Source of the DNA: Candidatus Kerfeldbacteria bacterium
GTDB lineage: Bacteria > Patescibacteriota > Patescibacteriia > SBBC01 > CAIJZX01
Length of the DNA stretch: 64,000 bases
Direction of reading: 5' to 3'
NCBI GenBank assembly: GCA_016193315.1
Contig: JACPSJ010000001.1
Location: forward strand, 535,478-599,477
In this document: positions 2,140 to 43,900 of the stretch, in pieces
Layout of the letters: each line of letters starts with the position of its first letter
How positions within the stretch are numbered: the first letter of the stretch is position 1
Made by a program: the position numbers and the translations under genes
The notes under the pieces: model-generated
Databases searched by the model: none
The model's input: the letters and a program-made list of their open reading frames with translations, nothing else
Told to the model about the DNA's origin: nothing

Positions 2140-3585
2140 ATGAGATTTTTTCTGGTGGCGGTGACGGCTACGTTGCTGATCATGTTGTGGTCCGCGTTGC
2201 CGGTTGAAGCGTCACCGACAAGTTTCAACAAAAACCTCATCGTCTACGACGATGAGTTCGAAGATTGGCAGACGCTATCCGCGGCCTGGATCCAGGCCTT
2301 CCTTAACAGCCAGCCCGGCATTCTCAAGTCGTACTCGGTCAGTGGGAAACCGGCTTCGCAAATCATTTACGAGGCGGCCCAAACATACCGCCTCAGCCCA
2401 AAAGTCATCCTGGCCAACATCCAGAAAGAGTCGAGCATGGTTACCCGGACCACCTTCCCCAGCGGTCGACAGTTCTATTTGGACTGGATCATGTTCTACG
2501 GCTGGTGCGATTCTTGCTCGACTGGTTCGCAGAAGGGATTCGTCAACCAAATTATCGCCGCCAGTAATGCTTTCCGTCGGTACCTCAACAATATCGCTGC
2601 CACTGGCCATACCGGATATGGGCCAGGCCCGTGGGGTCCAGGTATCCCCTCGGCCATCAGATGTATTGACAGTGACTACAACAGCGGACGCCAATTGTGT
2701 ACCCCCGGCACCACCACCACCATCACCCCCGTCAATCGCGCCACGGCCGCCCTCTATACCTACACACCCCATCCCGGCGGCAACTACGCTTTCTGGAAAA
2801 TTTGGCGCCAATTCCGCTTTGATCTTCTGCGTAAGTACCCGGATGGAACACTGATTCGGGCCGAACGGAGTCCAAACGTCTGGCTCATCCAGGCCGGTCA
2901 GAAGCGACGTTTCACCAATAGTGCGGCTTTTTTATCACGCTATACTTTCTCGCAGGTGATCGCCGTCCCACCGGATCACCTCTGGCTTTACCGCACCGGG
3001 ACCGAAATCTCGTACGCTAACTACTCGTTGCTTTCCTCCCCGGAAGGGGGCGTCTACCTACTCGTTGGTGATCGGAAACGTCCAATTGTTTCGCGCGCCG
3101 CCTTCCAAAATGCTGGCTTCCGTTGGGAGGAAGTGGTTCGGGTGTCGTGGCGCGAACTAAATAAATTTCCCGACGGCGATGACATCACCACCGACAATGT
3201 CTACCCCTCTGGTCGCCTGCTGCAAAATAATCGCAGTGGGGTTGTTTACTTCGTCCAAGATGGGGTTCGTCACCCCATTGCCTGTCGCGAAATGTTCCGC
3301 TCGCAATTCGGACTGCGCCGCCCGCAGCCGGTGGCGCCGGCCGAGCTGGAGCGTTATCAGTGGGGCTCGCCCGTCGGCTTCAAGGACGGCGACCTCGTTA
3401 CCGCTGGTCGCACCGCCTACGTGATCTCCAAGGGCAAAAAGCTGCCCATCGCTGATCCAGCGACCTACAACGCCTATGGCTTTAGCTGGGGCAATCTTCA
3501 GCTCGTCCCAGCACCCTGTGTTGACATTCATCCGACCGGGCGGACACTCGACGCGACCGATCCAGTCCGAATTGCCGGTCACTAG
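2140..3585 (+). CDS. Secreted protein with SLT/lysozyme-like motif and four tandem ~60-aa C-terminal repeats
   Basis: ATG at 2140 gives the signal peptide MRFFLVAVTATLLIMLWSALPVEASP. The track start at 2122 is GTG, and an extended -10 TGgTATACT lies at 2121-2131. The motif LSPKVILANIQKESS resembles the SLT catalytic Glu-Ser region. Four C-terminal repeats share the pattern xVYLLxxGxKRPIxxxAFxNAGFxW (WLIQAGQKRRF, YLLVGDRKRPI, VYFVQDGVRHPI, AYVISKGKKLPI). Confidence 0.55.
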   Translation: MRFFLVAVTATLLIMLWSALPVEASPTSFNKNLIVYDDEFEDWQTLSAAWIQAFLNSQPGILKSYSVSGKPASQIIYEAAQTYRLSPKVILANIQKESSMVTRTTFPSGRQFYLDWIMFYGWCDSCSTGSQKGFVNQIIAASNAFRRYLNNIAATGHTGYGPGPWGPGIPSAIRCIDSDYNSGRQLCTPGTTTTITPVNRATAALYTYTPHPGGNYAFWKIWRQFRFDLLRKYPDGTLIRAERSPNVWLIQAGQKRRFTNSAAFLSRYTFSQVIAVPPDHLWLYRTGTEISYANYSLLSSPEGGVYLLVGDRKRPIVSRAAFQNAGFRWEEVVRVSWRELNKFPDGDDITTDNVYPSGRLLQNNRSGVVYFVQDGVRHPIACREMFRSQFGLRRPQPVAPAELERYQWGSPVGFKDGDLVTAGRTAYVISKGKKLPIADPATYNAYGFSWGNLQLVPAPCVDIHPTGRTLDATDPVRIAGH

Positions 3586-3588
3586 CCC

Positions 3589-4365
3589 ATGCCGCTCGTC
3601 TTTGCGGCCGTTGTCCCCCACGCCCCACTCCTCGTGCCGGCCGTGGCAAAAGAACATCAACGCCTGACCGCGGCCACCCGTCAGCAGCTGGCTCGTCTGG
3701 CGGAAGAGCTCCACGCCAGCCAGCCGGACGGACTCATTCTATTTACCCCCCACGGGCCAGTTATCAATGACGTCCTAGTGGCGAACGTCGCCGACGAATA
3801 CCTCGGAGAGTTGGTTGAGTTTGGTGATCTGAAAACAAGGCTCCGCGTTCGCGGCGCGCCGTGGCTGGGGCATCGGTTCAAAGAACTAGCTGAAAGTCTT
3901 CACCTGCCGCTTCAGCTGCAAACGCTTCCTCGTCTCGATTATGGAACAACGGTGCCCTTGAAATTTCTCCTGGCCGGCCAGCCGGGACTACCCATTCTAC
4001 CACTCACTGTCGCCCATCAACCAGAATCACTCCTGGTCCGTTTCGGACGAGTCGTCTCATCTGTCGTGCAGAGTGATCGTCGTCGGTACGCGCTCGTGGC
4101 TTCGGGCGACTTGACGCGTCGGTCGGAAACTACCGCTAACTTTCAACGGCCGACGGCCGAGGAGCGGGCGATGGCCGAGGCCATCAGCCGCCTCAGTATT
4201 GATCCGTTGACGGATGTTACGATCCAACCTTCAACCTGCGGTTACCGCCCGATGTATCTCCTCCTAGCAAGTCTCCAGGGCCGGCCCGGTCGAGGAGTCA
4301 TTCGTTCGTTCGAAGCGCCACTCAAGGTCGGACTACTGACCGCTGGGTTTGAACTCAATCCATGA
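3589..4365 (+). CDS. LigB-type (class III extradiol dioxygenase / MEMO-like) family protein
   Basis: 258 aa; N-terminal AAVVPHAPLLVP and LFTPHGPV His-Pro motifs typical of the LigB/DODA catalytic fold; the ATGA stop overlaps the next gene. Confidence 0.4.
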   Translation: MPLVFAAVVPHAPLLVPAVAKEHQRLTAATRQQLARLAEELHASQPDGLILFTPHGPVINDVLVANVADEYLGELVEFGDLKTRLRVRGAPWLGHRFKELAESLHLPLQLQTLPRLDYGTTVPLKFLLAGQPGLPILPLTVAHQPESLLVRFGRVVSSVVQSDRRRYALVASGDLTRRSETTANFQRPTAEERAMAEAISRLSIDPLTDVTIQPSTCGYRPMYLLLASLQGRPGRGVIRSFEAPLKVGLLTAGFELNP

Positions 4366-10711: not shown

Positions 10712-11692
10712 TTAGAGCCGACTGACGGAGGCCGGATGACGAAGATGAAGACGGCGGAGTAATCCGGCTTTGGCACCGATGTGTTGGATGACTGACTCGG
10801 CATTGGCGTTGGCGAATTGGAGCGCGCGCGGGATATGACCACCAGAGCGAATGAACATGGCCGTAAAACCACAGCCAAAGGCATCCCCCGCGCCAGTGGC
10901 GTCGACCACTTTGATCGGGTGAGTACCGCCGCGCCAGCCGTGGTGCGCATCGCCGGCCAGCGAACCCTCGGTACCAGAGGTGATGACGACCACACCGCCG
11001 GCGTCTAATCGCAGTCTTTCGAAAGCCACTCGTTCTTGGAGTGGGTGAAGGCCAAACAGGGCCGTGGCTTCTTCATGGTTCAGGTGCAGGATATCAGTGC
11101 GCTGAAAGAATGGTCGCAGGCGGCGGTAGCCAAAACGCAGCTCGCTCGAGCCCGGATTCCACACCACGCGGATGCCTCGCCGGCGAGCGGCCGACCATAT
11201 CGCGCGGTGGAGCCCAAAATGCCCCCCTAGCGATGTGACATACAACCACTGGGCGTTCCAGCCGGCCCAGCGAATGTCGGCCGGCCGGAGATGCTCTGAG
11301 GCGCCGCGGTAAATCAGGACCGTCCGCTCACCACGTGGCGTTAGCAAAATAGCCGAGTAGGCGGTCATGCGGCGACGATCAAGAACCACTCTGGCTACAT
11401 CTACTCCGGCTTGCCGCAAGTCACGAAGCACCGCCTGACCGCGACTGTCACCAGCACCAATCCGCCCGATGAAACGGGTACGAAAACCTAGTCGGGAAAA
11501 ACCGACGGCCGTGTTTGTCGCCCCGCCACCGGTATCAAACACTATCTTGTCAACTTCGATTTTTGACCCTAAAGCGAAGCACTCGGCCTCGCCAGTACTA
11601 AAGTGGTCGTCGCGGACGATGCGCATGGCTCCGCTCCGGAGGAAGACGTCGCGCGTGGCCGAACCGATGGTGACGACATCGAAGCTGTTCAT
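10712..11692 (-). CDS. PfkB-family carbohydrate/nucleoside kinase
   Basis: 326 aa; N-terminal GxG sugar-binding region and the C-terminal DATGAGDAF anion-hole motif of the ribokinase/PfkB family. Confidence 0.7.
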   Translation of the reverse strand: MNSFDVVTIGSATRDVFLRSGAMRIVRDDHFSTGEAECFALGSKIEVDKIVFDTGGGATNTAVGFSRLGFRTRFIGRIGAGDSRGQAVLRDLRQAGVDVARVVLDRRRMTAYSAILLTPRGERTVLIYRGASEHLRPADIRWAGWNAQWLYVTSLGGHFGLHRAIWSAARRRGIRVVWNPGSSELRFGYRRLRPFFQRTDILHLNHEEATALFGLHPLQERVAFERLRLDAGGVVVITSGTEGSLAGDAHHGWRGGTHPIKVVDATGAGDAFGCGFTAMFIRSGGHIPRALQFANANAESVIQHIGAKAGLLRRLHLRHPASVSRL

Positions 11693-12534
11693 TTCGCCTG
11701 TCGATGACTTCCAAACATAACTATTTTTTGTTTCACCACCCCCATCATCGCCTGTCGGCCCGGACCGAGATAGTCACGGGGATCATACGGGTGGTCCTGG
11801 CGAAGGGCGTGACGAACGGAACGGCTAAAAGCGACGCGGAGTTCGGTATCGATGTTAATTTTGCAAATTCCTAGTCTGATCGCCCGCCGGATGACCGCGG
11901 CAGGCATACCGGAAGCACCGTGGAGGACCAACGGCACGGTGACGCGTTGGCGAATGGCCCCGAGACGTCGAAAATCGAGGTGTTCAAAGCGGCTGGAGAG
12001 AACATGCAGATTGCCGATGGCCACGGCCAAGGCGACGACGCCAGTCTGACGAACAAAGTCCTGCGCTTGTTGTGGATTGGTCAAAACGAGATCTGGCGAG
12101 CGCTGGAATTCGTCTGGATATTTAACTTGCCCCAGTTCGCCTTCGACCCCTACGCCATACCGACGAGCCAGCCGCACGACCTGCTGGGTCCGGGCAATAT
12201 TTTGACCGTACCTGCCTCGACTGGCGTCAAACATCAAACCAGTGTAACCGACACGTAAACACCGCTCTGCTAAGCGGCGGTGACGTCCATGATCAAGATC
12301 GAGCACCACCGGCACCGGGTACTTCTTTGCCATCGTCTTAACGACGACGGCCAATTCCTCCAAACCAGCATAGGCAATAGCTTTTTCCGAAGTATTGACA
12401 ATCACCGGCGCCCGGAGCGCGGCCGCCGCCTGAATCACCGCCTGCACCTGCTCGAGGTCGGAGACATTAAAGGCCCCCACCGCATAACCACGTTTCTGGG
12501 CCCGCCGCAGGACCGACTGAAGTGTCACCAGCAT
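11689..12534 (-). CDS. fba: Class II fructose/tagatose-bisphosphate aldolase
   Basis: 281 aa; GAFNV, DLDHG, LHGASG and KINIDTE signatures of class II (metal-dependent) FBA. Confidence 0.8.
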   Translation of the reverse strand: MLVTLQSVLRRAQKRGYAVGAFNVSDLEQVQAVIQAAAALRAPVIVNTSEKAIAYAGLEELAVVVKTMAKKYPVPVVLDLDHGRHRRLAERCLRVGYTGLMFDASRGRYGQNIARTQQVVRLARRYGVGVEGELGQVKYPDEFQRSPDLVLTNPQQAQDFVRQTGVVALAVAIGNLHVLSSRFEHLDFRRLGAIRQRVTVPLVLHGASGMPAAVIRRAIRLGICKINIDTELRVAFSRSVRHALRQDHPYDPRDYLGPGRQAMMGVVKQKIVMFGSHRQAK

Positions 12535-12552
12535 GACTCTATTGTACCATAC

Positions 12553-13200
12553 TCATCGGCGTACGCCGCTGGCCGCTCGTTGGGCATCCCGGTAGGCCTG
12601 GTGTGGGTCCGCAGCAGCCAAGAGATGGGAGCCGATGATCAGACGTCGAGCCCCGGCGGCCACCACCCGGGGGATTGTGAGTGGGTTCAATCCCCCATCG
12701 CAGGCGACTGTGGTCTGCGGGTACCGACGCCGGAGCTGACGAAGTCGAGGCAAAACGTGGGGTTGGAAGGGGTTGTGTTGTCGGCCAGGTTCAATCGCCA
12801 TCACCACCACGCTCTCGATCTGCCGAATCCACGGTTGCAGTCGAACCAGCGACGTGGTCATTTTGAGGGCCAAACTGACGGCGATCCGCCGGGACCGAAA
12901 CAGAGCCACCAGTGGCGGGAGTCGAGTGCCTAGTTCGAGGTGGAGGATAACCCGCTTGGTGGGCCAACTAGCGATTACTCCTAGCCAAGCCTCCGGGTGA
13001 TAGGTCATGAAATGCCACTCCACCGATCGGGGCGGGGTAAGCCGTCGCAGCTGAGGTTCGGACAGCGATCGAGAGTGGACGAACCGTCCGTCCATCAAGT
13101 CGATGTGCACCAGGCGGTGTAGTTGCTCCGCCACCGCCAACTGTCGGCGAAAAGCGTTGGCTCGCGAGGCCAGGACGGCCGGAATAATCTCAGCGCCCAT
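12553..13200 (-). CDS. rpe: Ribulose-phosphate 3-epimerase
   Basis: HIDLMDGRFV, VMAIEPG and DGG motifs. The start is taken at the internal ATG at 13200 (MGAEIIPAVLA), giving ~216 aa; the track ORF extends upstream into rpiB. Confidence 0.75.
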   Translation of the reverse strand: MGAEIIPAVLASRANAFRRQLAVAEQLHRLVHIDLMDGRFVHSRSLSEPQLRRLTPPRSVEWHFMTYHPEAWLGVIASWPTKRVILHLELGTRLPPLVALFRSRRIAVSLALKMTTSLVRLQPWIRQIESVVVMAIEPGRQHNPFQPHVLPRLRQLRRRYPQTTVACDGGLNPLTIPRVVAAGARRLIIGSHLLAAADPHQAYRDAQRAASGVRR

Positions 13201-30298: not shown

Positions 30299-31872
30299 AC
30301 CCGGTCACGGAGTTGCTGCCAGACGGAGGTCAGGAGCGAAGCCTCAGACAGTCGGAAGAGGCTGGCAAAAATAGCATAGGAAATTAACCCGACGGCCCCG
30401 GCCACCACCGCCTGCGCTAGCACGCCGACCGCACGCGTCAGGTCGAGCCCGAAACTGACCAAGAAATACTTAGTCGCTTGAACCGTCAGAGCCATCAGGA
30501 TGGTGACGCCGAGGATCTTGATGACCGACTGGATAATCCGATCGTCATCGAGATGACCAATCCGCCGGTGGAGTGTCAGCGCCAACAGTCCGGCGTTCAG
30601 CACGCTCGAGACCGAGTATGCCAGGGCCAGTCCCTGAACACCCATGATCGGGCTGAGGACGACCGATCCGAGAATGGCAATACTAACCGCGGCGATAGTG
30701 TACCGCATCGGCGTTTTGGTATCCTGCATGGCATAGAACGAGCGGGCCAGCACGGGTATCAAAGATTGAGCAAAGAAGGAGAGGGCAAAAAAGCCGAGTG
30801 TCTGGGCGGTGGCGATCGTTTCCGGCCAGCTGACCTGGCCCGCTCCGATGATGACCCGAACGAACTGGGCCCGCAACTGCAAAAATAACACAGTCACGGG
30901 GATAATGACAAACAGGATGTTTCGGACAATGGTTGAGAACTGCTGCACGAATTCTTCGCGGCGCCCCTGACTGAGCAGTTCGACGAAGCGTGGGAATGCC
31001 ACGGTGGCCATCGACAAACCCATGATCGTGACTGGGAAGTCTTGGATGTCGTTGGCCCAACGGAAAATCGATAGGTTCGCCGGCCCGAGGCGAGTGGCGA
31101 TGGGAATAGTCGCCAACTGATTGAGCTGGGTGACGGATTGACCGACTGTTCGCGGCACCAGGAGCTGTCCGATCTGTCGGACGCCGGGGTGTCGCCAACC
31201 AGCCCCTCGACCCGGACGCCAGCCAACCCGCCAGGCCGCCGCGGCGTGGATGGTGGTGTGGAGGAATGCCCCCCCGACCGCCCCCCAGGCCACCCCAGCC
31301 GGACCGAGCACCGGCACGAACCACAGGAGGCCGGCGATGATCCCGAGGTTATTGAAGATCGGCGCCAGCGACACGGCGACGAAATGGCGGAACGAGTGTA
31401 GAACGCCAGCAAAAACATTGCTAATCGAAAAGAGGAGCATGTTCATTGACATGATCCGGGTCAGGACGATCGCCGTGTGTTGGGCCGCCAAGCCGAACTT
31501 GTGACCGACCAGGAGTTTGACGAGCGGCTCAGCGGCCACGAGCAGAATTAAGCCTAAAGAAAAAAAGACGATCATTAGGATGTTGAGGATCGAGCGGGAG
31601 ATGCGCCAGGCCTCAGCCTGGTCGCGCTGCCGGTAGGCGATGAACACCGGCATGAACGACGTCAGCAGCGAGCCGAGGATCAGCGTTCCGTAGATGAAAT
31701 CGGGGATAGCAAAGGCCGCGTAGATCGGGTCCGCCCCCTCGGCGCCGAAGGTCGAGGCGATCAGGCGCTGCCGGATCAGACCAAAGAGTTTACTTAAGAT
31801 CCCGGTGACTCCCACCAGGACCGCGCCGCCCAGAATTGTGGTCTGGATTGTCTCCAGCAATTTCCGCCACAT
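30268..31872 (-). CDS. murJ: Lipid II flippase MurJ (MviN family)
   Basis: 534 aa, about 14 TM; MOP-superfamily MurJ pattern. Confidence 0.8.
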   Translation of the reverse strand: MWRKLLETIQTTILGGAVLVGVTGILSKLFGLIRQRLIASTFGAEGADPIYAAFAIPDFIYGTLILGSLLTSFMPVFIAYRQRDQAEAWRISRSILNILMIVFFSLGLILLVAAEPLVKLLVGHKFGLAAQHTAIVLTRIMSMNMLLFSISNVFAGVLHSFRHFVAVSLAPIFNNLGIIAGLLWFVPVLGPAGVAWGAVGGAFLHTTIHAAAAWRVGWRPGRGAGWRHPGVRQIGQLLVPRTVGQSVTQLNQLATIPIATRLGPANLSIFRWANDIQDFPVTIMGLSMATVAFPRFVELLSQGRREEFVQQFSTIVRNILFVIIPVTVLFLQLRAQFVRVIIGAGQVSWPETIATAQTLGFFALSFFAQSLIPVLARSFYAMQDTKTPMRYTIAAVSIAILGSVVLSPIMGVQGLALAYSVSSVLNAGLLALTLHRRIGHLDDDRIIQSVIKILGVTILMALTVQATKYFLVSFGLDLTRAVGVLAQAVVAGAVGLISYAIFASLFRLSEASLLTSVWQQLRDRVWRNGLTRSS

Positions 31873-32325
31873 ACAACAACCGCACGCAGTTTACCACTTT
31901 TTGGTCCGCCTGACAAGCCGCAAATACAAAAACGACCCACGGTTTGGGTTACCCCGCCAGCCGATAGGCACTTCTGGCTGAACCAGGAGCGGTCAACGCT
32001 CTGCGGTATCCAACGGAGGAGAACACCTTGCGGTGTGACATTGGGTCCTACAGCGCGCGGACATCACTGATTCAGCCGGAACTGCAACTGAACTCTTCCT
32101 ACAGTAGTCGCATGAGTTCCGTCGCTCGTCAAGACCCTCCAACCTCCCTGGCCGCCACCACCTGGCCCTGGCGACGCCGTGGAGGGACGGCGCACCGGGA
32201 CCGGGCGTGATGACGACCAGGAAAGTTCCGTTGCTTGATCGGGCAGCACAACGGTTCGGTCTCGCTGAAAGGAGCGACTAGCTACTCCACCAAAATACAC
32301 TTCATCAGAACTGTGCTTTGGTGGG

Positions 32326-32351
32326 GGCTCCGACTCAATAGAGTCGGAGCC
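32326..32351 (-). terminator. Perfect 11-bp hairpin GGCTCCGACTC-aata-GAGTCGGAGCC downstream of the collagen-like gene
   Basis: Seen directly; lies 26 nt after the stop at 32377; no U-tract, so it may be a stabiliser or bidirectional terminator. Confidence 0.45.
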
Positions 32352-32376
32352 TGAAATGCGAGGGGAGGAACGAGAC

Positions 32377-32988
32377 CTAGACGGTGGTGACCGGCGGGGC
32401 GGCAGCGCCAGGGGCACCCGGCGTGGTCTCGGCCGCCGGAGCCGGAACACGATCCCGGATGATGACCACGCGCCCTGGCACCTGGCCTTCTTCCCGGACC
32501 ACGGCGCGGGCCGTGTCCCGCACCGCGGCGGTGAATGTGGCGCTCGCGAATAGATCGGTGCCGGCCGTGGCCGGGCCGACTCCGGCTATCGCGACCGACG
32601 CATGGTGATGGGCCATCGCGACGTGGAACGCATTCCGGGCTTCGGTCCGCGCGGCGCCGAGCTGCCAGAAGATGATCGGCATCCCGACCACCACCAGCAG
32701 GGTCACGATCGCCACCCAGACCAGAGACATATTGCCCCGGTCGTAGGCGATGACCAACTGACTCGACTGCTCCGGCGAGAACGTCCCGACCGGCCCCTGG
32801 ACGCCCTGTTGACCCTGCGGTCCTCTCGGCCCCCGCTCGCCGCGCGGACCCTGCGGCCCGACCACCACGGCGGTCGCGGGCTGGCCCTGATCCTCGACCA
32901 GGGCCGCCGACGCACTCGACTCCGGCCCCTGGGCCAGAACCGGAACGGCCAAGGCCATGAGCAGGAAAACGACGGTGATGAGCTTCAA
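32377..32988 (-). CDS. Secreted collagen-like (Gly-X-Y) repeat protein with C-terminal TM anchor
   Basis: TTG start with AAGGAGGG 4 nt upstream; signal peptide MKLITVVFLLMALAVPVLA; 13 consecutive G-X-Y triplets (GPQGPRGERGPRGPQGQQGVQGPVGT); TM LVWVAIVTLLVVVGMPIIFWQL; Ala/Pro-rich tail. Confidence 0.6.
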   Translation of the reverse strand: MKLITVVFLLMALAVPVLAQGPESSASAALVEDQGQPATAVVVGPQGPRGERGPRGPQGQQGVQGPVGTFSPEQSSQLVIAYDRGNMSLVWVAIVTLLVVVGMPIIFWQLGAARTEARNAFHVAMAHHHASVAIAGVGPATAGTDLFASATFTAAVRDTARAVVREEGQVPGRVVIIRDRVPAPAAETTPGAPGAAAPPVTTV

Positions 32989-33502
32989 GTCTCCCTCCTT
33001 GATTGCGCCGCTCCACCATGAAGCGGCGATCCGACCCCGTATGAAATCACGGGGCTAAATTGCTGCTTCATGGTAAAGCCTCTTCTGAACACCACCGAAC
33101 AGGAGGTGAGCGTATGGCGTTGCCTTCCGCGAAGCCACGTTTTACGTGGTGAAGCGGGGTCGTCGCCATTGATGCGCCAAGACCATGGGGCCGAAGAGTA
33201 GCAACCCTCAAGCCTATGGATCCGGCACGGCCGGACAGCGTCCATGCTGGCTGTCCGCTAGTCCGGTGCTCTCCCCTCCTTGTCGGTGGTGTCTCGCTGT
33301 TGTAAAAGTACGTTCTGACTTGAACGATCGATCGTTGATCAATCATTCAAGTCAGAGGGGGAGTGCGGTACAGAACCACGCTCCCCTCTCTATGCTTCAC
33401 AATCCCTAGCGGGATTGGACCGCAACCTTAGTTGCGGGATTTTGTCCAAAGGGCGTTTCAGGAAGACATATCACCCCTTACTCACGCCTGGCTTCGCCAG
33501 GG

Positions 33503-34003
33503 TTAGGCTACGCGCTGGTGACCGTGGCCTCTCCTCCGGCCGGATCCCGGCTTGTCGATCCGCTCGCCAGGACGGTCGAAGGCGGAGCGCAGACGGTAGT
33601 CGGCCACACTGCGGCCGACTTGCTTCGGATTCTTGCGGTGGTCGTGGACCGCCGCTTTGCCATTGCCGTTCAAGGCAGCAATGGTAGCAGTGTAGGCCTC
33701 GGCCGCTTCCGTCCGGAGCTGCTCCTGCCTCTGTTGGCGAGCCAGCATACCCTCAGCCTCGAAAAGCTGGCGGAAGGCGCGGTCCCGAGCCTCTCTCCAC
33801 CAGCCGATCTGGAGAGCCATTCCCTTCAGATGCTGTCCGAGCTGCTGCAGCTGGTTCTGTTCGGCTGGCGTCTCGCCCGGGCAGGATTCGATGTCCTGCT
33901 GGGCGCGATCGGCTGCCTCGGCCAGGAGCCGAAGATTGCGCTCCGCCTCCTCCATCCTGGCCTTGAGGGAAACGATCCGCTCCGACAGCGACACAGAACT
34001 CAT
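33503..34003 (-). CDS. Coiled-coil protein of unknown function
   Basis: 166 aa; ATG preceded by AGGAGG 7 nt upstream; heptad-rich sequence (LKARMEEAERNLRLLAEAADRAQQDIE...). Confidence 0.55.
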   Translation of the reverse strand: MSSVSLSERIVSLKARMEEAERNLRLLAEAADRAQQDIESCPGETPAEQNQLQQLGQHLKGMALQIGWWREARDRAFRQLFEAEGMLARQQRQEQLRTEAAEAYTATIAALNGNGKAAVHDHRKNPKQVGRSVADYRLRSAFDRPGERIDKPGSGRRRGHGHQRVA

Positions 34004-34149
34004 GAGATTCCTCCTGCCCGACTTGGGCGGAATGGGGTAATGGTTTGTACGGTACGACCGGATCTTCCGGCCGGTGGTCTCAACGCATCGTTAAGCTCAC
34101 CGGGGGAGGGCGGTGCGGGTCCGAGTTGAACTCGGGCACCGCCCAGGAA

Positions 34150-34338
34150 CTACTTCTCCACCCTTGGCTCGTCCGCCTTCTCCTTCGGCTGTCGGCACTT
34201 GCAGTCCGCGCCCCGGCACCGACAGAACTCGGAGATCCGGTAGCCAGCGGCCTGGGCCGTGGTGAGCGCCTGCGCGTCGACGACCCCGCCGCGTTCGGCC
34301 GACTTGGCCAAGGCAATCAACGCTTCGCGAGGACCCAT
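34150..34338 (-). CDS. 62-aa protein with C-terminal Cys cluster (CRCRGADCKCRQPKEK)
   Basis: ATG preceded by GGAGGG 5 nt upstream; CxC-x5-CxC motif suggests a small metal-binding knuckle. Confidence 0.5.
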   Translation of the reverse strand: MGPREALIALAKSAERGGVVDAQALTTAQAAGYRISEFCRCRGADCKCRQPKEKADEPRVEK

Positions 34339-34393
34339 AGTTCCCTCCAGTTCCGGTCTGCCCGACCGGCGGGGTGGCCGTAGCCACGGTGGC

Positions 34394-34756
34394 TCAGTCG
34401 GCTTCTCGTTCGGCCGCCAGCTCCCTCTCCGGACGGGGGTGGATGTCTCGCGTTCTGGTCCGACCCCGCGAAGGGATGAACACCAGGATGAGCATCATGA
34501 TCCCGCTGACGAAGAGCACGCCGGAGATGATCAGGAAGCTTGGCGCTCCGAAGTCGCGGACGGCGTTTACCACGACAACGGCGGTGTTGTGCAGCCACTC
34601 GAGGAGAGCGGCTGTGGCCTGCTGCAGGCCGTTGGCCAGGAGCGCCGTCTGCTGCCGGAAGTAGTCCGGCCGACAGAGGAAGCTGATCCCGGCCGAGACG
34701 AAGCCCCCAGCGACGAAGACCACAGCGGTGACCAACAGTTTCAACCGTTTCGGCAT
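34394..34756 (-). CDS. Small two-TM membrane protein
   Basis: 120 aa; ATG preceded by AAAGGAGC; TM1 LLVTAVVFVAGGFVSAGISFL and TM2 FLIISGVLFVSGIMMLILVFI; Arg-rich tail. Confidence 0.55.
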   Translation of the reverse strand: MPKRLKLLVTAVVFVAGGFVSAGISFLCRPDYFRQQTALLANGLQQATAALLEWLHNTAVVVVNAVRDFGAPSFLIISGVLFVSGIMMLILVFIPSRGRTRTRDIHPRPERELAAEREAD

Positions 34757-34773
34757 GTTTAGCTCCTTTGCAG

Positions 34774-34953
34774 TTAGTCGGTCGCAGTCGACCCAGACGC
34801 CTCGTCTGTATCTTCGAGAGTCTGGTTGCGACTCCAGATGACGTCACGGATCTCCTGGCCGATCGTACGGCAGGCCGTGACGAGGGTATCCAGATCGAAC
34901 TGCTGACCGGCAATGAAGCGGTTGACGAAGTCCTCGGCTTCGGCCTTGGTCAT
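34774..34953 (-). CDS. 59-aa acidic protein (MTKAEAEDFVNRFIAGQQFDL...); a longer upstream-extended form is possible
   Basis: ATG at 34953 is preceded by AGGAGAAG 5 nt upstream. The frame stays open up to the TTG at 35133 (track ORF), with an alternative ATG at 35082. Confidence 0.45.
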   Translation of the reverse strand: MTKAEAEDFVNRFIAGQQFDLDTLVTACRTIGQEIRDVIWSRNQTLEDTDEASGSTATD

Positions 34954-35151
34954 CGTCACTTCTCCTGGGACAGCAGACGAACTGTCTTGATCCGGCCTGG
35001 CCACAGTTTCTGGTTCGATCATGCCAAACCTAGAAAGCTGGGTTGTGATCGTCCGGCGTAGACGACTGAATAGTACCTGCATTGCTGTCACTCCGTTCTG
35101 ACGGCAGGGGTGGTGGTAGGTGGATGGTGACAAAGATCGAAGGTGCTTCTC

Positions 35152-35358
35152 TCACTTGGGCGCCCCATGCTTGATGGAAGCGCCCGAGTGAGGGGAGGAG
35201 TTGTGGAGGGGAAACTCCTCCCGCGTGGCTGGAACGAGGTCGTAGAGGCTGATCCCTGGCTGGTAGCGCAGGTGATACAAGCTGTTTTCGACCTCATACT
35301 CCAGTTCGACCGGTTGGCCGGTCAGATCGTTGATGTACCGCCGCGAGATGATGCTCAT
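35152..35358 (-). CDS. 68-aa protein of unknown function
   Basis: ATG at 35358 is preceded by GGAGG 7 nt upstream (MSIISRRYINDLTGQPVELEYEVENSLYHL...); the C-terminal low-complexity tail overlaps hairpin H1. Confidence 0.45.
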   Translation of the reverse strand: MSIISRRYINDLTGQPVELEYEVENSLYHLRYQPGISLYDLVPATREEFPLHNSSPHSGASIKHGAPK

Positions 35359-35505
35359 GGCTGTACCTCCTTGATAGGTGCGGCCGACTCCTCGCTCGAA
35401 CATTCCATACTTCCGTACCGAATGCTCGAGTGAGAGTAGGAAGATGTTGCCATCCTCCTCTCACCGTGTGTGACACCGGGTGAGCGGTGGTGCAATGCCT
35501 AGCGG

Positions 35506-35892
35506 CTAGCCGGCCTGTTCGGGAGACCGAACGTCCATGGCGCAGAGACTCAGACAAAAGAGCCAAAAGGCCGTGCCGATGAGGTAGAACTGCCACGGCA
35601 TGAGGTCCATGCGAACCTGCTCGCCGCCGACGGCGATGATGGCCGACGCCACATAGGCCAGGATCGTGCCGAGGAGTTTGATCGGTCGGCTCGACTGCAT
35701 CAGCGGGTAAGTCAGACCGCCGAAGACCAGACCGACGAGGCCGAAGAAGGCGGCCGCCGCCATGTTGAGGTCCTTGGCCGAGGCTAGATGCGCCGGGGCG
35801 AACGCCCCTTGAAGCGCGGTGTACCACAGGTAGAAGCAGCCGGAAACGGTGGCCACAATGACGGCCAGGCCAGTCCAACGAATCGGACGCAT
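35506..35892 (-). CDS. Four-TM membrane protein of unknown function
   Basis: 128 aa with four hydrophobic helices; GGAG-type RBS 12 nt upstream. Confidence 0.55.
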   Translation of the reverse strand: MRPIRWTGLAVIVATVSGCFYLWYTALQGAFAPAHLASAKDLNMAAAAFFGLVGLVFGGLTYPLMQSSRPIKLLGTILAYVASAIIAVGGEQVRMDLMPWQFYLIGTAFWLFCLSLCAMDVRSPEQAG

Positions 35893-36844
35893 TCGATCTC
35901 TTTCTCCGCCTAGAGCGGATGGAATGTACGATCCAGTTCCTTGTTCTTTACCTCACTTGAGCACTCAGATTCCCTCCAAGATTAGAAAGGGGGATGTTTG
36001 TGGGGGCTGAGTGCTCGAGCGAGGGTAAGATCTGGATCTCGATGCTCCCTTGAGCGCCCCGTGTGGAGGGACACGAGACGCTCGAGGGAGGGGGCGTCGC
36101 AGCACGAATACTGGACGCCCCAGGTGCGAGGAAGTGCCCGTTCACTTCCTCCGCTATTCAGCTCGGTCGAAAGGGCGTTACATAAATCCGGTCACGGCGT
36201 TCACCTCCTTGTTCAGGGATGGTGCCTCGAGGGAACGAATCAGGAGGCGAGCTGGAGGCGGCTTATGTCGACCGAAGTCAACGAACCGCCCAAATGTCCT
36301 TTGGCGTGGCTTTGGGAGTTTGCACCCCCTTGGCTACGATGTTAGGACGGCTGGATCCTGAGCCGCTTCAAGCGTGATCAGAACGCCAGTGCTCTCCCCT
36401 CCTTATTCCTCCCCTCTCTCGAAGGGACAGGTTTCTGCGACCAATGACACACGGCCACTGGCCGCAGAGCCTGTCCCGTCGAAATGGATACTCGGCTGGG
36501 GGAATCAACCCCTTTCTGTCGTCCCGATGCGCTTTGCCATCGGGCCTTCCTCCCTGCCCCTTGAGTTAAGGGGAAGGACATCAACAAAAAGGGTGGGGCG
36601 CGTTGAGGACCGATGAGCACCTGAATCTAGTTCAGGGTTAGTCGCCAACGCACCCCACCCTTCGGTGGCAATGGTTAGTAAATGTCGCTCCTCAACGACG
36701 CTGATGCTTGGTTGTAAGGCGCTGCCGGATCTCCTCTTCCTTCAGCCCAATTCAAGCGTAACAGGCCACTATAGAGCAGCCCTTGAATTTTGTCAAGGGG
36801 TACCTGGCCTAAAACGCCGTTTATCCGCTAACCTTAGCCTTTTT
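35893..36844. other. ~0.95-kb protein-free, highly structured segment (candidate large ncRNA / regulatory region)
   Basis: No ORF with an RBS on either strand. Perfect 11-bp hairpin at 36126-36154. Nested hairpins at 36420-36575 (GGACAGG...CCTGTCC, CCCGATG..CATCGGG, CCCCTTgagttAAGGGG). 15-bp inverted repeat GGGTGGGGCGCGTTG...CAACGCACCCCACCC at 36591-36660. 29-nt polypyrimidine tract at 36391-36419. Confidence 0.4.
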
Positions 36845-39001
36845 CTATTTCAGGACAACCTGGAATTGGCGGGAACGCTCGGATGTTGTCACCCAAACAG
36901 CCTGGCGCCCATCTCGCTGGCTTGAAGCGAGGGGCGCGAATTCTCGAACCTTGCGCGACCCCGGATCGAACGATAAAGTCCATCGGCGTTCGACCGTTCC
37001 TGGTTGTTTTTGCCAGATCATATTCCATAACCCGTGATCAGTGATCTGATCGAAGGGCACGGTATAGGTAAAGGTGATCGTTTGTTGCTGGCCGGGCGGC
37101 AGCAAGCTCCAGGCGCCGAAAACGCGCTTGCCGTTTTCGGCACTGAAACGGAAATGGTTGGTCGAATCGACCAGGACTTGACCTTCAGCCCGCTGAAGTT
37201 TCGACGATGGGGTGGTGCCAGGAGACGCGGTTTGGAAAAAACCCGCTGGCGGCGTCGAGGCGCCAGTGATCGACCCCAGCTGGGCTGAGGCCGGAACATA
37301 GATTCGCAGGAAGTCGTGGTTTGGTTGGAACCCGAGCGGATCGTCGGCTTGGCCGCCATGGACACGGGTCACCTTAACCGTGTGGCGAAGCAGACCGCTA
37401 TCGAGGGTGACGGCAATATCAACGTTTTCGGTCACTACACGATCTGTCTTCCCGCCGCCCAGATTACTATCAACCACGGACAGATAATCACCGTCGGTCT
37501 GGATAACGGCACCATTCCACCCTAGTTCGGCCACCGTCTGTCCGAAGTCAGGATCCTCGCTGGCCAGCATGATATTGGCCTGAGCGGCGTGAGACAAGAT
37601 CGTCACCACGGCCTCCAGTGCCTCGGCCGTGGGCAGTGAGCCAACGGACTGCAGCAGGACGGGAATAAGATCGAGAATGAACTGCTTCGGGTTATTGAGC
37701 GCTCGATCGAATTTTAATTCGACTTGCTGTTCCGTCGCGCGGACGAAGTTGTCGGCGGTCACGGCCACGTCATACCCCGGTGGGCGGAGCGGTCCGGTCA
37801 GGCGTAGTAAATCCTCGACCACGGCCGGGCTGAGCGCGATTACACCGTCCGGTCGAAAACCGCGGGCCTGCTCGTAGAAATCAAGCATGAACGAGGCTGA
37901 TGTCGGCCAGTCAAGAAACCAGTTGGCGTCATGGAATGCCCAGTACGGCGCCACCGCCAGCAGCGGTTCTGGTGGCCGCGTGGTATGCGGCGTCGTCGCC
38001 GTCAAGTCAAACGGGCCGGTCGCTGGCGCATCGACAATCCTCATCCGGCCACGGTCAAACTTGACGAGCACAAAAGTACCGGCAAACCCTCCGCTGGGCC
38101 GCAACTCATCATCATTCTGAAACACGACCAAATACTCTTGGGCTTGGTGCTGGGCAAACAAGCCGGTCAATAATCGACCAACCTGCTCGACCGCTCGGCC
38201 GTCAGGGAAGAATGACTGCTCGACCAGCTGCCACCAGCGCACCATTCTGGCGTAGTCGGCTGGCAGGACATCTGGATCGACCGATCGAAGAGCCCGTTCG
38301 GCCACGGCCAGATCGTTCACCACCGCAGTTAATGTGGCCGGCGCGCTGAAAATGGGCGTCAAAAACCCTAAGGATCCCTCCCATCCCTGAATCACGTCAC
38401 GCGGGGCGTTGGAGTGCGGGCGGGGGGCCGATGCCAGGGCTGTAGTCGCTCGTTGCCCGGCCTGGGCTAACGACTGGCCAGCCTGCGCTAGGGAACGAGC
38501 CGTCCGATATCGATTCCCGAGGCCGGGTAGGAACTCGACCATTGACGGTGGCAACCCCAACGGTCCTTGGAGGTCCGGCTCGATTCGCCCAAACAAGCGT
38601 TCGGCCTCGGCAAAATGCTGCCGCGCCGTAGCGACTTGATACTCGCGCCACGCCATCAGGCCAGCCTGAAGTTCTGACGCCGCCTGCTGTCCCCGGGTGG
38701 CCACCTGTCCGGCGGCCTGAGCGAACCGCGCGACGCCGACAATCGCTACGGCCGGGATGATAACCACCAACCCAACCACCAGAAAAAAGAAACTCTGCCG
38801 ACGGATTGACCCCCAGTCGCGGGCGGCGGCTGGCATATGCCAGGCGGCCGCCGGCCGCCGACGGAAGTGGCGACCTAAGTCCGGACGCGGAAGACGGCGC
38901 CGGTTTTCGGCCGCTTCCACCTGACGTTCCGCCACGATCTGGCGTAGATCGAGAACGTTGTGATCAGGAACGGGCGGGTGAACGTTTGGCGAGCTGCTCA
39001 T
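36845..39001 (-). CDS. Large membrane-anchored extracytoplasmic protein, possibly DUF4012 family (polysaccharide-locus associated)
   Basis: 718 aa; N-terminal TM (FFFLVVGLVVIIPAVAIVGV); coiled-coil-like Ala/Gln-rich region, then a long extracellular domain; sits at the head of the GT4-Wzz-GT4-PGT operon. Confidence 0.5.
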   Translation of the reverse strand: MSSSPNVHPPVPDHNVLDLRQIVAERQVEAAENRRRLPRPDLGRHFRRRPAAAWHMPAAARDWGSIRRQSFFFLVVGLVVIIPAVAIVGVARFAQAAGQVATRGQQAASELQAGLMAWREYQVATARQHFAEAERLFGRIEPDLQGPLGLPPSMVEFLPGLGNRYRTARSLAQAGQSLAQAGQRATTALASAPRPHSNAPRDVIQGWEGSLGFLTPIFSAPATLTAVVNDLAVAERALRSVDPDVLPADYARMVRWWQLVEQSFFPDGRAVEQVGRLLTGLFAQHQAQEYLVVFQNDDELRPSGGFAGTFVLVKFDRGRMRIVDAPATGPFDLTATTPHTTRPPEPLLAVAPYWAFHDANWFLDWPTSASFMLDFYEQARGFRPDGVIALSPAVVEDLLRLTGPLRPPGYDVAVTADNFVRATEQQVELKFDRALNNPKQFILDLIPVLLQSVGSLPTAEALEAVVTILSHAAQANIMLASEDPDFGQTVAELGWNGAVIQTDGDYLSVVDSNLGGGKTDRVVTENVDIAVTLDSGLLRHTVKVTRVHGGQADDPLGFQPNHDFLRIYVPASAQLGSITGASTPPAGFFQTASPGTTPSSKLQRAEGQVLVDSTNHFRFSAENGKRVFGAWSLLPPGQQQTITFTYTVPFDQITDHGLWNMIWQKQPGTVERRWTLSFDPGSRKVREFAPLASSQRDGRQAVWVTTSERSRQFQVVLK

Positions 39002-43212: not shown

Positions 43213-43261
43213 GACCGTCTACGTACCTCTCGACCAGACCACCGGTAAGCCGAATTCTGTT

Positions 43262-43331
43262 CCCGCACCTTTCTGAGCTCAACACCTGATGGTGATGGTT
43301 GACGTGTGGCCGTTGCTCAGAAAGGTGCGGG
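43262..43331. repeat. Perfect 17-bp inverted repeat CCCGCACCTTTCTGAGC ... GCTCAGAAAGGTGCGGG with 36-nt structured loop
   Basis: Seen directly, between the PGT gene start and the 3' end of rnpB; may act as the rnpB terminator or a protein-binding site. Confidence 0.5.
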
Positions 43332-43369
43332 AGATGATCATCTCTCTTGGAGTGCCATTGCTGACACCC

Positions 43370-43900
43370 TCTAGCGATCTACCCGTCCCGCTGTCAGGCG
43401 GAACCTATACGATCTTGCACCAGAGAGGGTTTGCCCGCCGTCCGGCTCACGCCGGACCGCCGTGCGCTCTGACCGTCACCGCCTTTCGGCGGGATCCCGC
43501 GGTATGCGGGACACGATTTCACCCTTACTCTTTCCACGCCGGCGAAGCCGCGCTGCGATCCCCCGGTTCATTTATGAACCAGAAGACTGGCCAGTGTCGA
43601 CTCGCGAGAAGTGCCTGAATGAATCAAGCGATGGCATGGAAGGAGCGGTATGTTTCTGTTGCACTCTTCGTCCCGCTATATAGCGGGATCCCTGGGCTTG
43701 GCCCCGACGCCCCGCTCACCGGGGGTCGGGATTACTCCCGGTCGCTGTTAGCGACTCTCTGCTTATCCCGACGCGCTTGCGCGGTCGGCATGGTGTTCGG
43801 ACTTTCCTCCCCGATCGCGCTGACGCGCACCGGAGCGATCATCTAGTGGTCTGGAAAGAGGCTCAAACAGCGTACTATAATCGAGGCCCGCTGTCAACCT
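43370..43900 (-). ncRNA. rnpB: RNase P RNA (bacterial type A), ends approximate
   Basis: Minus-strand sequence contains the P4 motif GGGGAGGAAAGTCCG, then GAGTGCAACAGAAACATACCGC, AAGGGTGAAATCGTG and GGTCAGAGCGCACGG, in the order of E. coli M1 RNA; the 5'/3' ends carry a complementary GCGATC. The overlapping plus-strand ORFs are spurious. Confidence 0.7.

Follow-up and report, generated by a model that had tools for sequence, protein, structure and literature searches.

A new four-way-junction RNA family and a conserved attenuator-like leader between the DUF4012 and MurJ genes of a Kerfeldbacteria envelope-polysaccharide cluster

Between a DUF4012 gene and the gene of a small membrane protein in the genome of a Candidatus Kerfeldbacteria bacterium lies a 952-nt segment without any plausible gene. 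We analyzed this segment, positions 35893–36844 of a stretch of 64,000 nucleotides (hereafter the window; GenBank assembly GCA_016193315.1, contig JACPSJ010000001.1, positions 535,478 to 599,477), together with its counterparts in related genomes. Both flanking genes lie on the minus strand, and the segment extends from the stop codon of the first to the start codon of the second. Read in the direction of these genes, it contains a promoter motif, a leader and a predicted intrinsic terminator, followed by a conserved hairpin (hairpin B), a ~200-nt RNA with a four-way junction (4WJ), and a tail of further hairpins. Sequence comparison firmly shows the 4WJ, of which the window holds two copies (a and b), to be a new RNA family of ~200 nt, restricted to one locus in one lineage of the Candidate Phyla Radiation (CPR). 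The features are given below in the order in which they would be transcribed; SD stands for Shine–Dalgarno sequence, ORF for open reading frame and MFE for minimum free energy.

36845–39001, minus: 718-aa DUF4012 gene (Pfam E = 8e-28)
36806–36839, minus: operator-like palindromes GGCTAAGGTTAGCG, then TTAGGCC, just 5' of the -35 box
36768–36796, minus: sigma-70-type promoter motif TTGACA-17 nt-TATAGT, 11/12 consensus positions
36663–36761, minus: leader of ~100 nt, found by nhmmer once per locus in 13 genomes
36757–36706, minus: leader hairpin L1, with GAGGAG at 36736–36731
36719–36711, minus: predicted single-stranded leader stretch CCUUACAAC
36699–36696 with 36687–36684, minus: predicted stem of leader hairpin L2, loop UUGAGGAG at 36695–36688
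36586–36660, minus: predicted intrinsic terminator/attenuator, 20-bp stem (36660–36641 with 36610–36591) with a structured apical insert
36484–36583, minus: insert of three short hairpins predicted in the MFE structure, specific to this genome in an alignment of nine loci apart from a partial counterpart in L006
36419–36483, minus: hairpin B (GGGACAGGCUCUGCGGCC...GGUCGCAGAAACCUGUCCC), present in at least 13 genomes
36215–36416, minus: 4WJ copy a, ~200 nt, covariance model R1 score 158.9 bits (opposite strand, 29.5)
36178–36210, minus: SD AAGGAGGUG (36210–36202) and 5-codon ORF GUG ACC GGA UUU AUG UAA (36195–36178), from reading the sequence
36092–36154, minus: two strong local hairpins, 36154–36126 (9+2 bp) and about 36123–36092, from an inverted-repeat search and the MFE structure
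36043–36094, minus: hairpin D of the D/E/G family, base CUC.CUCGAGC...GCUCAAG.GAG
35945–36030, minus: hairpin E of the D/E/G family, 24-nt arms, loop with conserved CUCACAAACAU and GGAGGGA
35890–35907, minus: SD GGAG (35907–35904) and AUG (35892–35890) of the 128-aa gene, from reading the sequence
35506–35892, minus: gene of a predicted 128-aa orphan membrane protein, from the ORF map
35389–35465, minus: hairpin G of the D/E/G family, flanked by the 128-aa and 68-aa ORFs, beyond the segment
33074–33293, minus: 4WJ copy b, 128.7 bits with R1, outside the segment

An initial annotation of the window, made from the letters of the sequence, had described the segment as free of protein genes, densely structured and exceptional in size, and all three descriptions are borne out. 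No ORF of up to 115 aa inside it matches Pfam (seven internal or flanking ORFs were scanned), in public gene calls for three identical metagenome contigs these 952 nt stay without a gene, and its conservation is of the RNA type, with compensatory changes. The median gap between ORFs in a crude map of the window is ~32 nt. Folding of the segment gives an MFE z-score of −11.4 for the minus strand and −7.7 for the plus strand, and none of 20 shuffled sequences was equally stable. A scan against Rfam 15, whose 4227 families include GOLLD, ROOL, OLE, raiA, 6S, SRP, tmRNA, RNase P, epsC/EAR and the riboswitch classes, returned no match at the gathering threshold or with a meaningful E-value; none of the families matches the 4WJ in sequence or structure, and no Rfam family was found in the homologous regions of three related contigs (L007, L018 and L020). 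ARAGORN detected no tmRNA in the segment, in agreement with the earlier visual impression that RNase P, SRP and tmRNA do not fit. The best sub-threshold match in the scan, to Telomerase-vert (36337–36667, minus; 21.5 bits, E = 0.005, cutoff 70), is a chance match caused by CUAACCCU, which lies in the terminator hairpin's apical loop. In literature searches on Kerfeldbacteria, DUF4012 and structured RNAs or riboswitches of CPR/Patescibacteria, no listed title or abstract mentions such a motif.

The structures of the segment are conserved, with abundant compensatory changes, in ~16 related genomes, and 22 copies of the 4WJ are known. A search of a genome collection with DUF4012 peptide patterns found no close relatives; relatives were obtained from a large protein database via DUF4012 orthologs, and then through their contigs. 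The nearest orthologs are 41–46% identical and keep the gene order: Bac_transf (the initiating sugar transferase), GT4 glycosyltransferase, a ~201-aa gene, GT4, DUF4012, a zone of small ORFs, MurJ and LepA. This zone spans 3–8 kb in the relatives, is without Pfam matches and has many uncalled gaps, inside which blastn detects blocks of 62–88% nucleotide identity. Every true 4WJ member lies between the DUF4012 ortholog and MurJ/LepA, once or twice per locus and always on the gene strand, with tandem copies in L005 and a copy at L007 10447–10645, and within the window all module copies fall in the DUF4012–MurJ locus. DNA-pattern matches in Streptomyces, Burkholderiales and others are chance matches rejected by the covariance model, as are 50 of 56 metagenome pattern matches and the sole match on a viral contig. 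The three identical metagenome contigs (L001–L003) are uninformative on microdiversity because they are 100% identical to the window. Contigs of the organism were seen in the groundwater samples SRR12113385, SRR12113425 and SRR12113390. Three of the loci that carry a Kerfeldbacteria-type cluster and a 4WJ bear foreign labels, "uncultured Gammaproteobacteria bacterium" for L014 and L020 and "candidate division FCPU426" for L018, which are probably errors of binning or annotation.

The 4WJ is closed by helix P1 of ~21 bp, which includes GGGAGG:CCUCCC and GAGC/GCUY. Three arms leave the junction: P2 bears the conserved loop AAGCAUGG, P3 contains an inner GGU-tetraloop-ACU hairpin and an invariant G.U pair, and P4 combines a UUCG hairpin and a CAAAG bulge. 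On the plus strand, a polypyrimidine tract had been noticed whose complement is the purine-rich 5' strand of P1; the tract exists, but it occupies 36392–36420 rather than 36391–36419 and is interrupted by one A. In a MAFFT alignment of 13 copies, RNAalifold predicts 57 pairs, 37 of them with compensatory changes. This alignment was not fitted to a model; 89.6% of its cells are paired versus 39–43% with slid partners, and its covariation score is 0.50 versus 0.08–0.13; none of 500 shuffles reaches the observed values. The alignment of all 22 copies, the statistics of which carry the caveat that it was fitted to covariance model R1, has 94.8% of its cells paired and compensatory changes in 40 of 57 pairs, with 0 of 500 shuffles as high, and one G.U pair is invariant in 22/22 copies. 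R1 also recovered nine copies outside its training set, at 104–180 bits. Full-length copies score 104–195 bits on the gene strand versus 21–43 on the opposite strand, a 3- to 8-fold difference. Conserved G.U pairs and model scores that favor one strand point to selection on the RNA. The fold is aptamer-like, with conserved unpaired nucleotides, and AGCAC, GGU/ACU and CCUCC are among its invariant positions. Copy b is preceded by a long, terminator-like hairpin of 20 bp with a U-run (33356–33305) and followed by an SD and the gene of a 203-aa protein. The N-terminus of this protein resembles a signal peptide, and its sequence includes a short collagen-like repeat.

For the head of the segment, we aligned the DNA that follows the stop codon of DUF4012 in nine genomes. 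Palindromes of the type GGCTAA.ATTAGCC are kept upstream of the promoter in all nine aligned loci, and also in the distant L079 and L080, and are presumably a protein-binding site. The promoter motif is the only match in 35400–37200, with TTGAC and TAT..T invariant across the nine loci, and it too occurs in L079 and L080; transcription would start near 36761. The zone 31800–35900 contains no second strong promoter match, only one weak candidate before MurJ. In the leader that follows, the loops of hairpins L1 and L2 display (U)UGAGGAG, with a conserved single-stranded CUACAAUU between them. UGAGGAG and CUACAA are nearly invariant, and for most genomes GAGGAG falls into hairpin loops when the sequences are folded singly; the covariation of L1 and L2 was assessed by eye only. 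The leader runs into an inverted repeat at 36591–36660, correctly singled out in the initial annotation, with 22-nt arms of 86% complementarity. It forms the stem of the predicted terminator and is directly followed by a U-tract (UUUUU, 36590–36586), and in RNAalifold analysis of 11 genomes it comprises 20 pairs, of which 11 show compensatory changes, with UUUU invariant. By its sequence features, 36660–36586 thus qualifies as an intrinsic (Rho-independent) terminator. An inverted-repeat search further revealed that UCCUCAA in its 3' arm is complementary to UUGAGGA of the leader loops; in the consensus structure, one position of the 5' arm opposite this motif is unpaired.

The remaining modules are hairpins of unequal conservation. 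Hairpin B has 27 pairs in the RNAalifold consensus, 16 of them with compensatory changes, and its conserved G.U pairs become A.C mismatches on the opposite strand. In the relatives it begins within a few nucleotides of the terminator U-tract and is followed by the 4WJ. Together with the window-specific hairpins of the insert, it accounts for the nested helices previously reported at 36420–36575. Downstream of the 4WJ, the two hairpins at 36154–36092 have no detected conservation in the relatives; the first had been described as a perfect 11-bp hairpin (36126–36154), and a hairpin it is, although its stem consists of 9 perfect pairs, a 1-nt bulge and 2 more pairs. Hairpins D, E and G, by contrast, belong to a family whose basal stem has 16 pairs, 9 with compensatory changes, and one conserved C.A mismatch. 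Each locus has several copies, most of which lie between small ORFs: hairpin D matches intergenic hairpins at L005 11227–11277, L005 12853–12904 and L007 11481–11526, hairpin E is kept with covariation in L009, L010, L011, L014, L018, L020 and L046, and nhmmer finds many copies of hairpin G across the loci. The order of the modules varies among genomes, with a hairpin of type B or G directly 5' of most 4WJ copies. As related stem-loops repeated between short same-strand ORFs, the D/E/G hairpins recall REP elements and the RNase III sites of phage T7, from which they differ in being confined to one locus and in sharing a specific basal sequence and the conserved C.A mismatch across genomes. An integron attC array was considered and rejected, as reading of the alignment shows the D/E/G bases to be without the R''(RYYYAAC)/R'(GTTRRRY) consensus; the Pfam-annotated genes that flank the variable zone in the fetched loci belong to the polysaccharide cluster or are housekeeping genes, and none is an integrase.

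The design recurs beside more distant DUF4012 genes, in L080 and, loosely, in L079. In L080, where DUF4012 is 37% identical and the synteny is the same, the design of palindrome, promoter, GAGGAG leader and terminator is unchanged, and the element has no P2; with filters off it reaches 42 bits, compared with 13 bits for the other strand. L079 comes from a low-GC organism in which DUF4012 is 31% identical and stands in another gene context. Its non-coding gap of ~975 nt (11631–12606) contains the palindrome, the promoter and a terminator unit, a second promoter-like site and further stable hairpins, as well as a stable multibranch RNA closed by GGAGG...GCCUCC (z = −7.3), of which R1 recognizes P1 only (19 bits). 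What L079 has in common is the design and the P1 motif alone, which falls short of establishing homology to the 4WJ. The same gap holds a CIRCE element (TTAGCACTC-N9-GAGTGCTAA) before hrcA. The contig L078 stops at its DUF4012 gene and gives no information on the modules; just upstream of the same polysaccharide cluster it carries a bAvd-like gene and a reverse transcriptase gene (RVT_1) at 2183–3727, which looks like a diversity-generating retroelement.

What follows the 4WJ is a further clue to its role. An SD with an ORF of at least 36 aa begins within 135 nt 3' of the 4WJ in 18 of 19 copies, compared with 36% of random positions drawn from the same zones (P about 1e-7), and when a strong SD is required the figures are 16 of 19 and 23%. 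A role of the 4WJ in the 5' untranslated region (5'-UTR) is supported by the SD and ORF that follow nearly every copy. At the position occupied in the window by the 5-codon ORF, the relatives have an SD and ORFs of 36–214 aa. The mini-ORF and its ribosome-binding site, pointed out earlier as a potential leader peptide, are present on the minus strand, whereas the leader-peptide interpretation is not supported, given that the mini-ORF is unconserved; since the relatives hold full small ORFs there, it is probably a truncated remnant. The gap would reach 952 nt because the ORF behind copy a shrank to five codons.

The ORFs behind the 4WJ are heterogeneous orphans, many of which resemble small membrane proteins. 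They do not form one protein family: among 196 candidate ORFs from 15 zones, the largest cross-genome family has 3 members. Searches of the downstream ORFs against PHROGs and NCBIfam found only the collagen-like repeat in the 203-aa protein behind copy b. As the downstream ORFs are unrelated across genomes, conservation of the RNA modules far exceeds that of the proteins. Structure prediction for the 4WJ with its downstream region formed P1 in 18/18 MFE structures; the downstream SD, located ~15 to 135 nt from the 4WJ, pairs locally only and never with the CCUCC of the 4WJ. Thermodynamic folding thus gives no support to a simple SD-masking switch between the 3' strand of P1 and the downstream SD.

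In the window, the zone from the 128-aa gene to MurJ (31873–35892, minus, ~4 kb) contains orphan ORFs of 68, 59/102, 120, 62, 166 and 203 aa, separated by conserved hairpins, and further non-coding stretches of 0.4–0.5 kb. The sole match of the 128-aa protein among 5.8 billion proteins is itself. Small stand-alone response-regulator receiver proteins are encoded inside the variable zones of L006 (12295–12675) and L009 (15525–15884), and are possible regulators of the array. Upstream of the DUF4012 gene lie genes of two GT4 glycosyltransferases, of a 205-aa protein whose L010 ortholog has a Pfam match to Wzz, and of the initiating sugar transferase Bac_transf; ~4 kb downstream of the segment follow a MurJ/Wzx-type flippase and LepA. 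These surroundings are a cell-envelope polysaccharide cluster, and DUF4012 has been described as a CPR-enriched family that is present in capsular and exopolysaccharide clusters (PMC6744442). Directly upstream of the Bac_transf gene of the cluster, at 43230–43854 on the minus strand, is an RNase P RNA (bacterial class A, 140.5 bits), an adjacency that is kept in a relative (L007 3251–3793). With 625 nt versus the 367 positions of the model, this RNA carries inserts of about 36, 42, 98, 47 and 56 nt.

We favor, with moderate confidence, a reading of the segment as a complex leader acting in cis, in which an attenuator and a 5'-UTR RNA domain govern an array of fast-evolving small genes. The initial annotation had left the choice between a large non-coding RNA and a complex leader; the latter is retained, and a single large RNA is not supported because separable modules recur in the relatives in different orders and copy numbers. 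From the observed conservation, secondary structures, strand, copy distribution and promoter and terminator motifs, we infer transcription, attenuation and action in cis. The segment would be the non-coding head of a lineage-conserved transcription unit inserted between the DUF4012 and MurJ-type flippase genes. RNA polymerase would start at the sigma-70-type promoter directly after the DUF4012 stop codon, where the upstream palindromes may bind a regulator, and the first ~100 nt would fold into two hairpins displaying SD-like GAGGAG loops. Transcription would then meet the 20-bp intrinsic terminator, so that leader and terminator together could form an attenuator, whose effector, acting on the GAGGAG hairpins, might be a protein, the 30S subunit or a small molecule. 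The main argument is that no module past 36586 appears to have its own promoter, and downstream expression would therefore need read-through of the terminator, which suggests attenuation. The read-through RNA would carry hairpin B and the 4WJ, sealed by its ~21-bp helix, in the 5'-UTR ahead of an SD and a small ORF, where the 4WJ may act in cis as a stabilizing, processing or factor-binding module rather than as a switch that masks the SD; the D/E/G hairpins would punctuate the array between the small ORFs. The succession of promoter, structured leader, intrinsic terminator and promoterless genes is that of known leader attenuators (T-box, PyrR/TRAP-type and metabolite riboswitches), as is a leader complementary to one arm of the terminator. 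Unlike in those systems, the complementary motif UUGAGGA resides in hairpin loops and targets the 3' arm of the terminator, no classical antiterminator is seen, and there is neither a match to a known family nor a conserved leader peptide.

Several points weigh against this interpretation. The promoter and terminator assignments rest on consensus matches and conservation. The ORFs behind the 4WJ are heterogeneous orphans, and there is therefore no coherent regulon that would point to an effector. In the predicted folds P1 is present throughout and the SD is never paired with CCUCC, so that no concrete switching mechanism emerges, and closing helices as stable as this one, with 21 bp, are a feature of stable or processed RNAs more typically than of switches. 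It is the 3' arm and not the 5' arm of the terminator that the GAGGAG loops complement, a non-classical geometry for an antiterminator. Finally, the ~175-nt unit from promoter to terminator could equally well be a free-standing small RNA (sRNA).

This last point leads to the alternative that survives best, which we consider possible but rather unlikely, namely that the modules are stand-alone stable RNAs acting in trans: an sRNA of ~175 nt (about 36761–36586) and an excised 4WJ of ~190 nt. The GAGGAG loops of the sRNA could then be an interaction surface, making it a CsrB/RsmZ-like protein sponge or an anti-SD-like decoy, while the 4WJ would be freed by RNase III-type cleavage in its closing helix and work in a ribonucleoprotein (RNP). 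Such an sRNA would agree with the discrete unit of promoter and strong terminator kept in at least 13 genomes, and its GGA-containing hairpin loops resemble those generally known from CsrA-binding sRNAs. Like CsrB, RsmY and RsmZ, it exposes GGA motifs (UUGAGGAG) in the loops of hairpins and has a Rho-independent terminator at its end; it differs from them in having two such loops only and in matching no CsrB/Rsm family of Rfam. For the 4WJ, a helix P1 that forms in every prediction is typical of stable-RNA termini and RNase III substrates, each genome has one or two copies, and the 3' strand GCUUGCCUCCCGAU is retained even where its 5' partner is lost. However, the 4WJ has no promoter or terminator of its own and is significantly tied to the site just 5' of an SD and ORF, and the modules past the terminator follow it directly, with no promoter between, and this arrangement points to read-through more than to an sRNA gene of its own.

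A further, speculative view, to which we would give only a small chance, treats the whole DUF4012–MurJ zone as an RNA-centred locus in which selection acts mainly on the RNA modules and the ORFs turn over freely. The 4WJ would be an RNA class of its own, whether a riboswitch, a ribozyme or processing module, or an RNP subunit, and its conserved helix GGGAGG:CCUCCC, which resembles an SD paired with an anti-SD, might couple the status of ribosomes or translation to the expression of variable surface or small membrane proteins in these episymbionts. In its size, multi-helix junction, strong covariation, conserved junction and loop nucleotides and intergenic or 5'-UTR location, the 4WJ resembles orphan RNA motifs such as the raiA motif and other ~200-nt Rfam candidates. 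It differs from these in its limitation to one CPR lineage and one locus, its multiple copies and its position ahead of non-homologous orphan ORFs.

That the 4WJ is the aptamer of a new metabolite or ion riboswitch, controlling translation of the ORF behind it, is in our opinion unlikely. The complex, well-conserved multi-helix fold and its invariant junction and loop nucleotides (AGCAC, AAGCAUGG, GGU/ACU with the invariant G.U, and CAAAG) would suit an aptamer, as would the 5'-UTR position, the anti-SD-like CCUCCC in the 3' strand of P1 and the tandem copies in L005, which some riboswitches also show. Against it, the genes that follow encode small orphan proteins unrelated to one another, show no common theme of transporters or enzymes and thus lack the coherence expected of riboswitch targets. 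No mutually exclusive expression platform is predicted, as there is no alternative pairing with a downstream SD at its variable spacing of ~15 to 135 nt. Furthermore, the ~21-bp P1 is far more stable than the switchable P1 helices of riboswitches, and the L080 variant does without the P2 arm.

Still less probable, in our judgment, is that the 4WJ, alone or with hairpin B, is an RNA for processive antitermination of the EAR or phage put type that carries RNA polymerase to MurJ. A need for such an element is conceivable in a 3–8-kb array that is studded with terminator-like hairpins, has one strong promoter only, bears copy b of the 4WJ in its middle and lies between functionally linked genes of a polysaccharide cluster. 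The EAR RNA (Rfam epsC) of exopolysaccharide operons in Bacillales is likewise an untranslated structured RNA on the gene strand inside such a cluster, and by analogy a shared role in the transcription of long operons is plausible. But the ~200-nt junction closed by a 21-bp helix resembles neither EAR nor any other Rfam family in sequence or structure, it comes after the strongest terminator, that of the leader, most D/E/G hairpins have no U-tracts, and the tight link to SD and ORF starts is not predicted by antitermination.

That the segment has no RNA function at all and is decayed coding sequence or DNA repeats (REP/MITE-like or attC-like) folding by accident, as the repeated D/E/G palindromes in their cassette-like layout, the one visibly decayed ORF (36195–36178) and the unconserved hairpins at 36583–36484 and 36154–36092 might suggest, is highly improbable in view of the compensatory pairs in the 4WJ (40/57), hairpin B (16/27) and the terminator (11/20), the one-sided G.U pairs and model scores, RNA elements more conserved than neighboring proteins, and hairpin bases that lack the attC consensus and are confined to one locus within the 64-kb window. 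This reading is largely refuted for the leader, the terminator, hairpin B and the 4WJ, and possible for the unconserved hairpins.

We know of very few non-coding RNAs described in CPR/Patescibacteria. These bacteria are tiny, uncultivated and largely episymbiotic, and their surface biology is thought to govern host attachment. The present analysis adds a strongly supported RNA family with 40 covarying pairs, together with a conserved attenuator motif, inside a conserved envelope-polysaccharide cluster. Both are absent from Rfam 15, and although they belong to known kinds of structured leaders and non-coding RNAs, their mosaic, multi-copy architecture is unusual. The narrow distribution, one lineage and ~16 genomes, limits the immediate reach of the finding, while the covariance model, the coordinates and the predicted promoter and terminator are concrete objects that can be tested. 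It is unusual for RNA modules to be better conserved than the proteins they precede, and this suggests that fast-evolving small, often membrane-associated proteins are controlled at the RNA level in these organisms.

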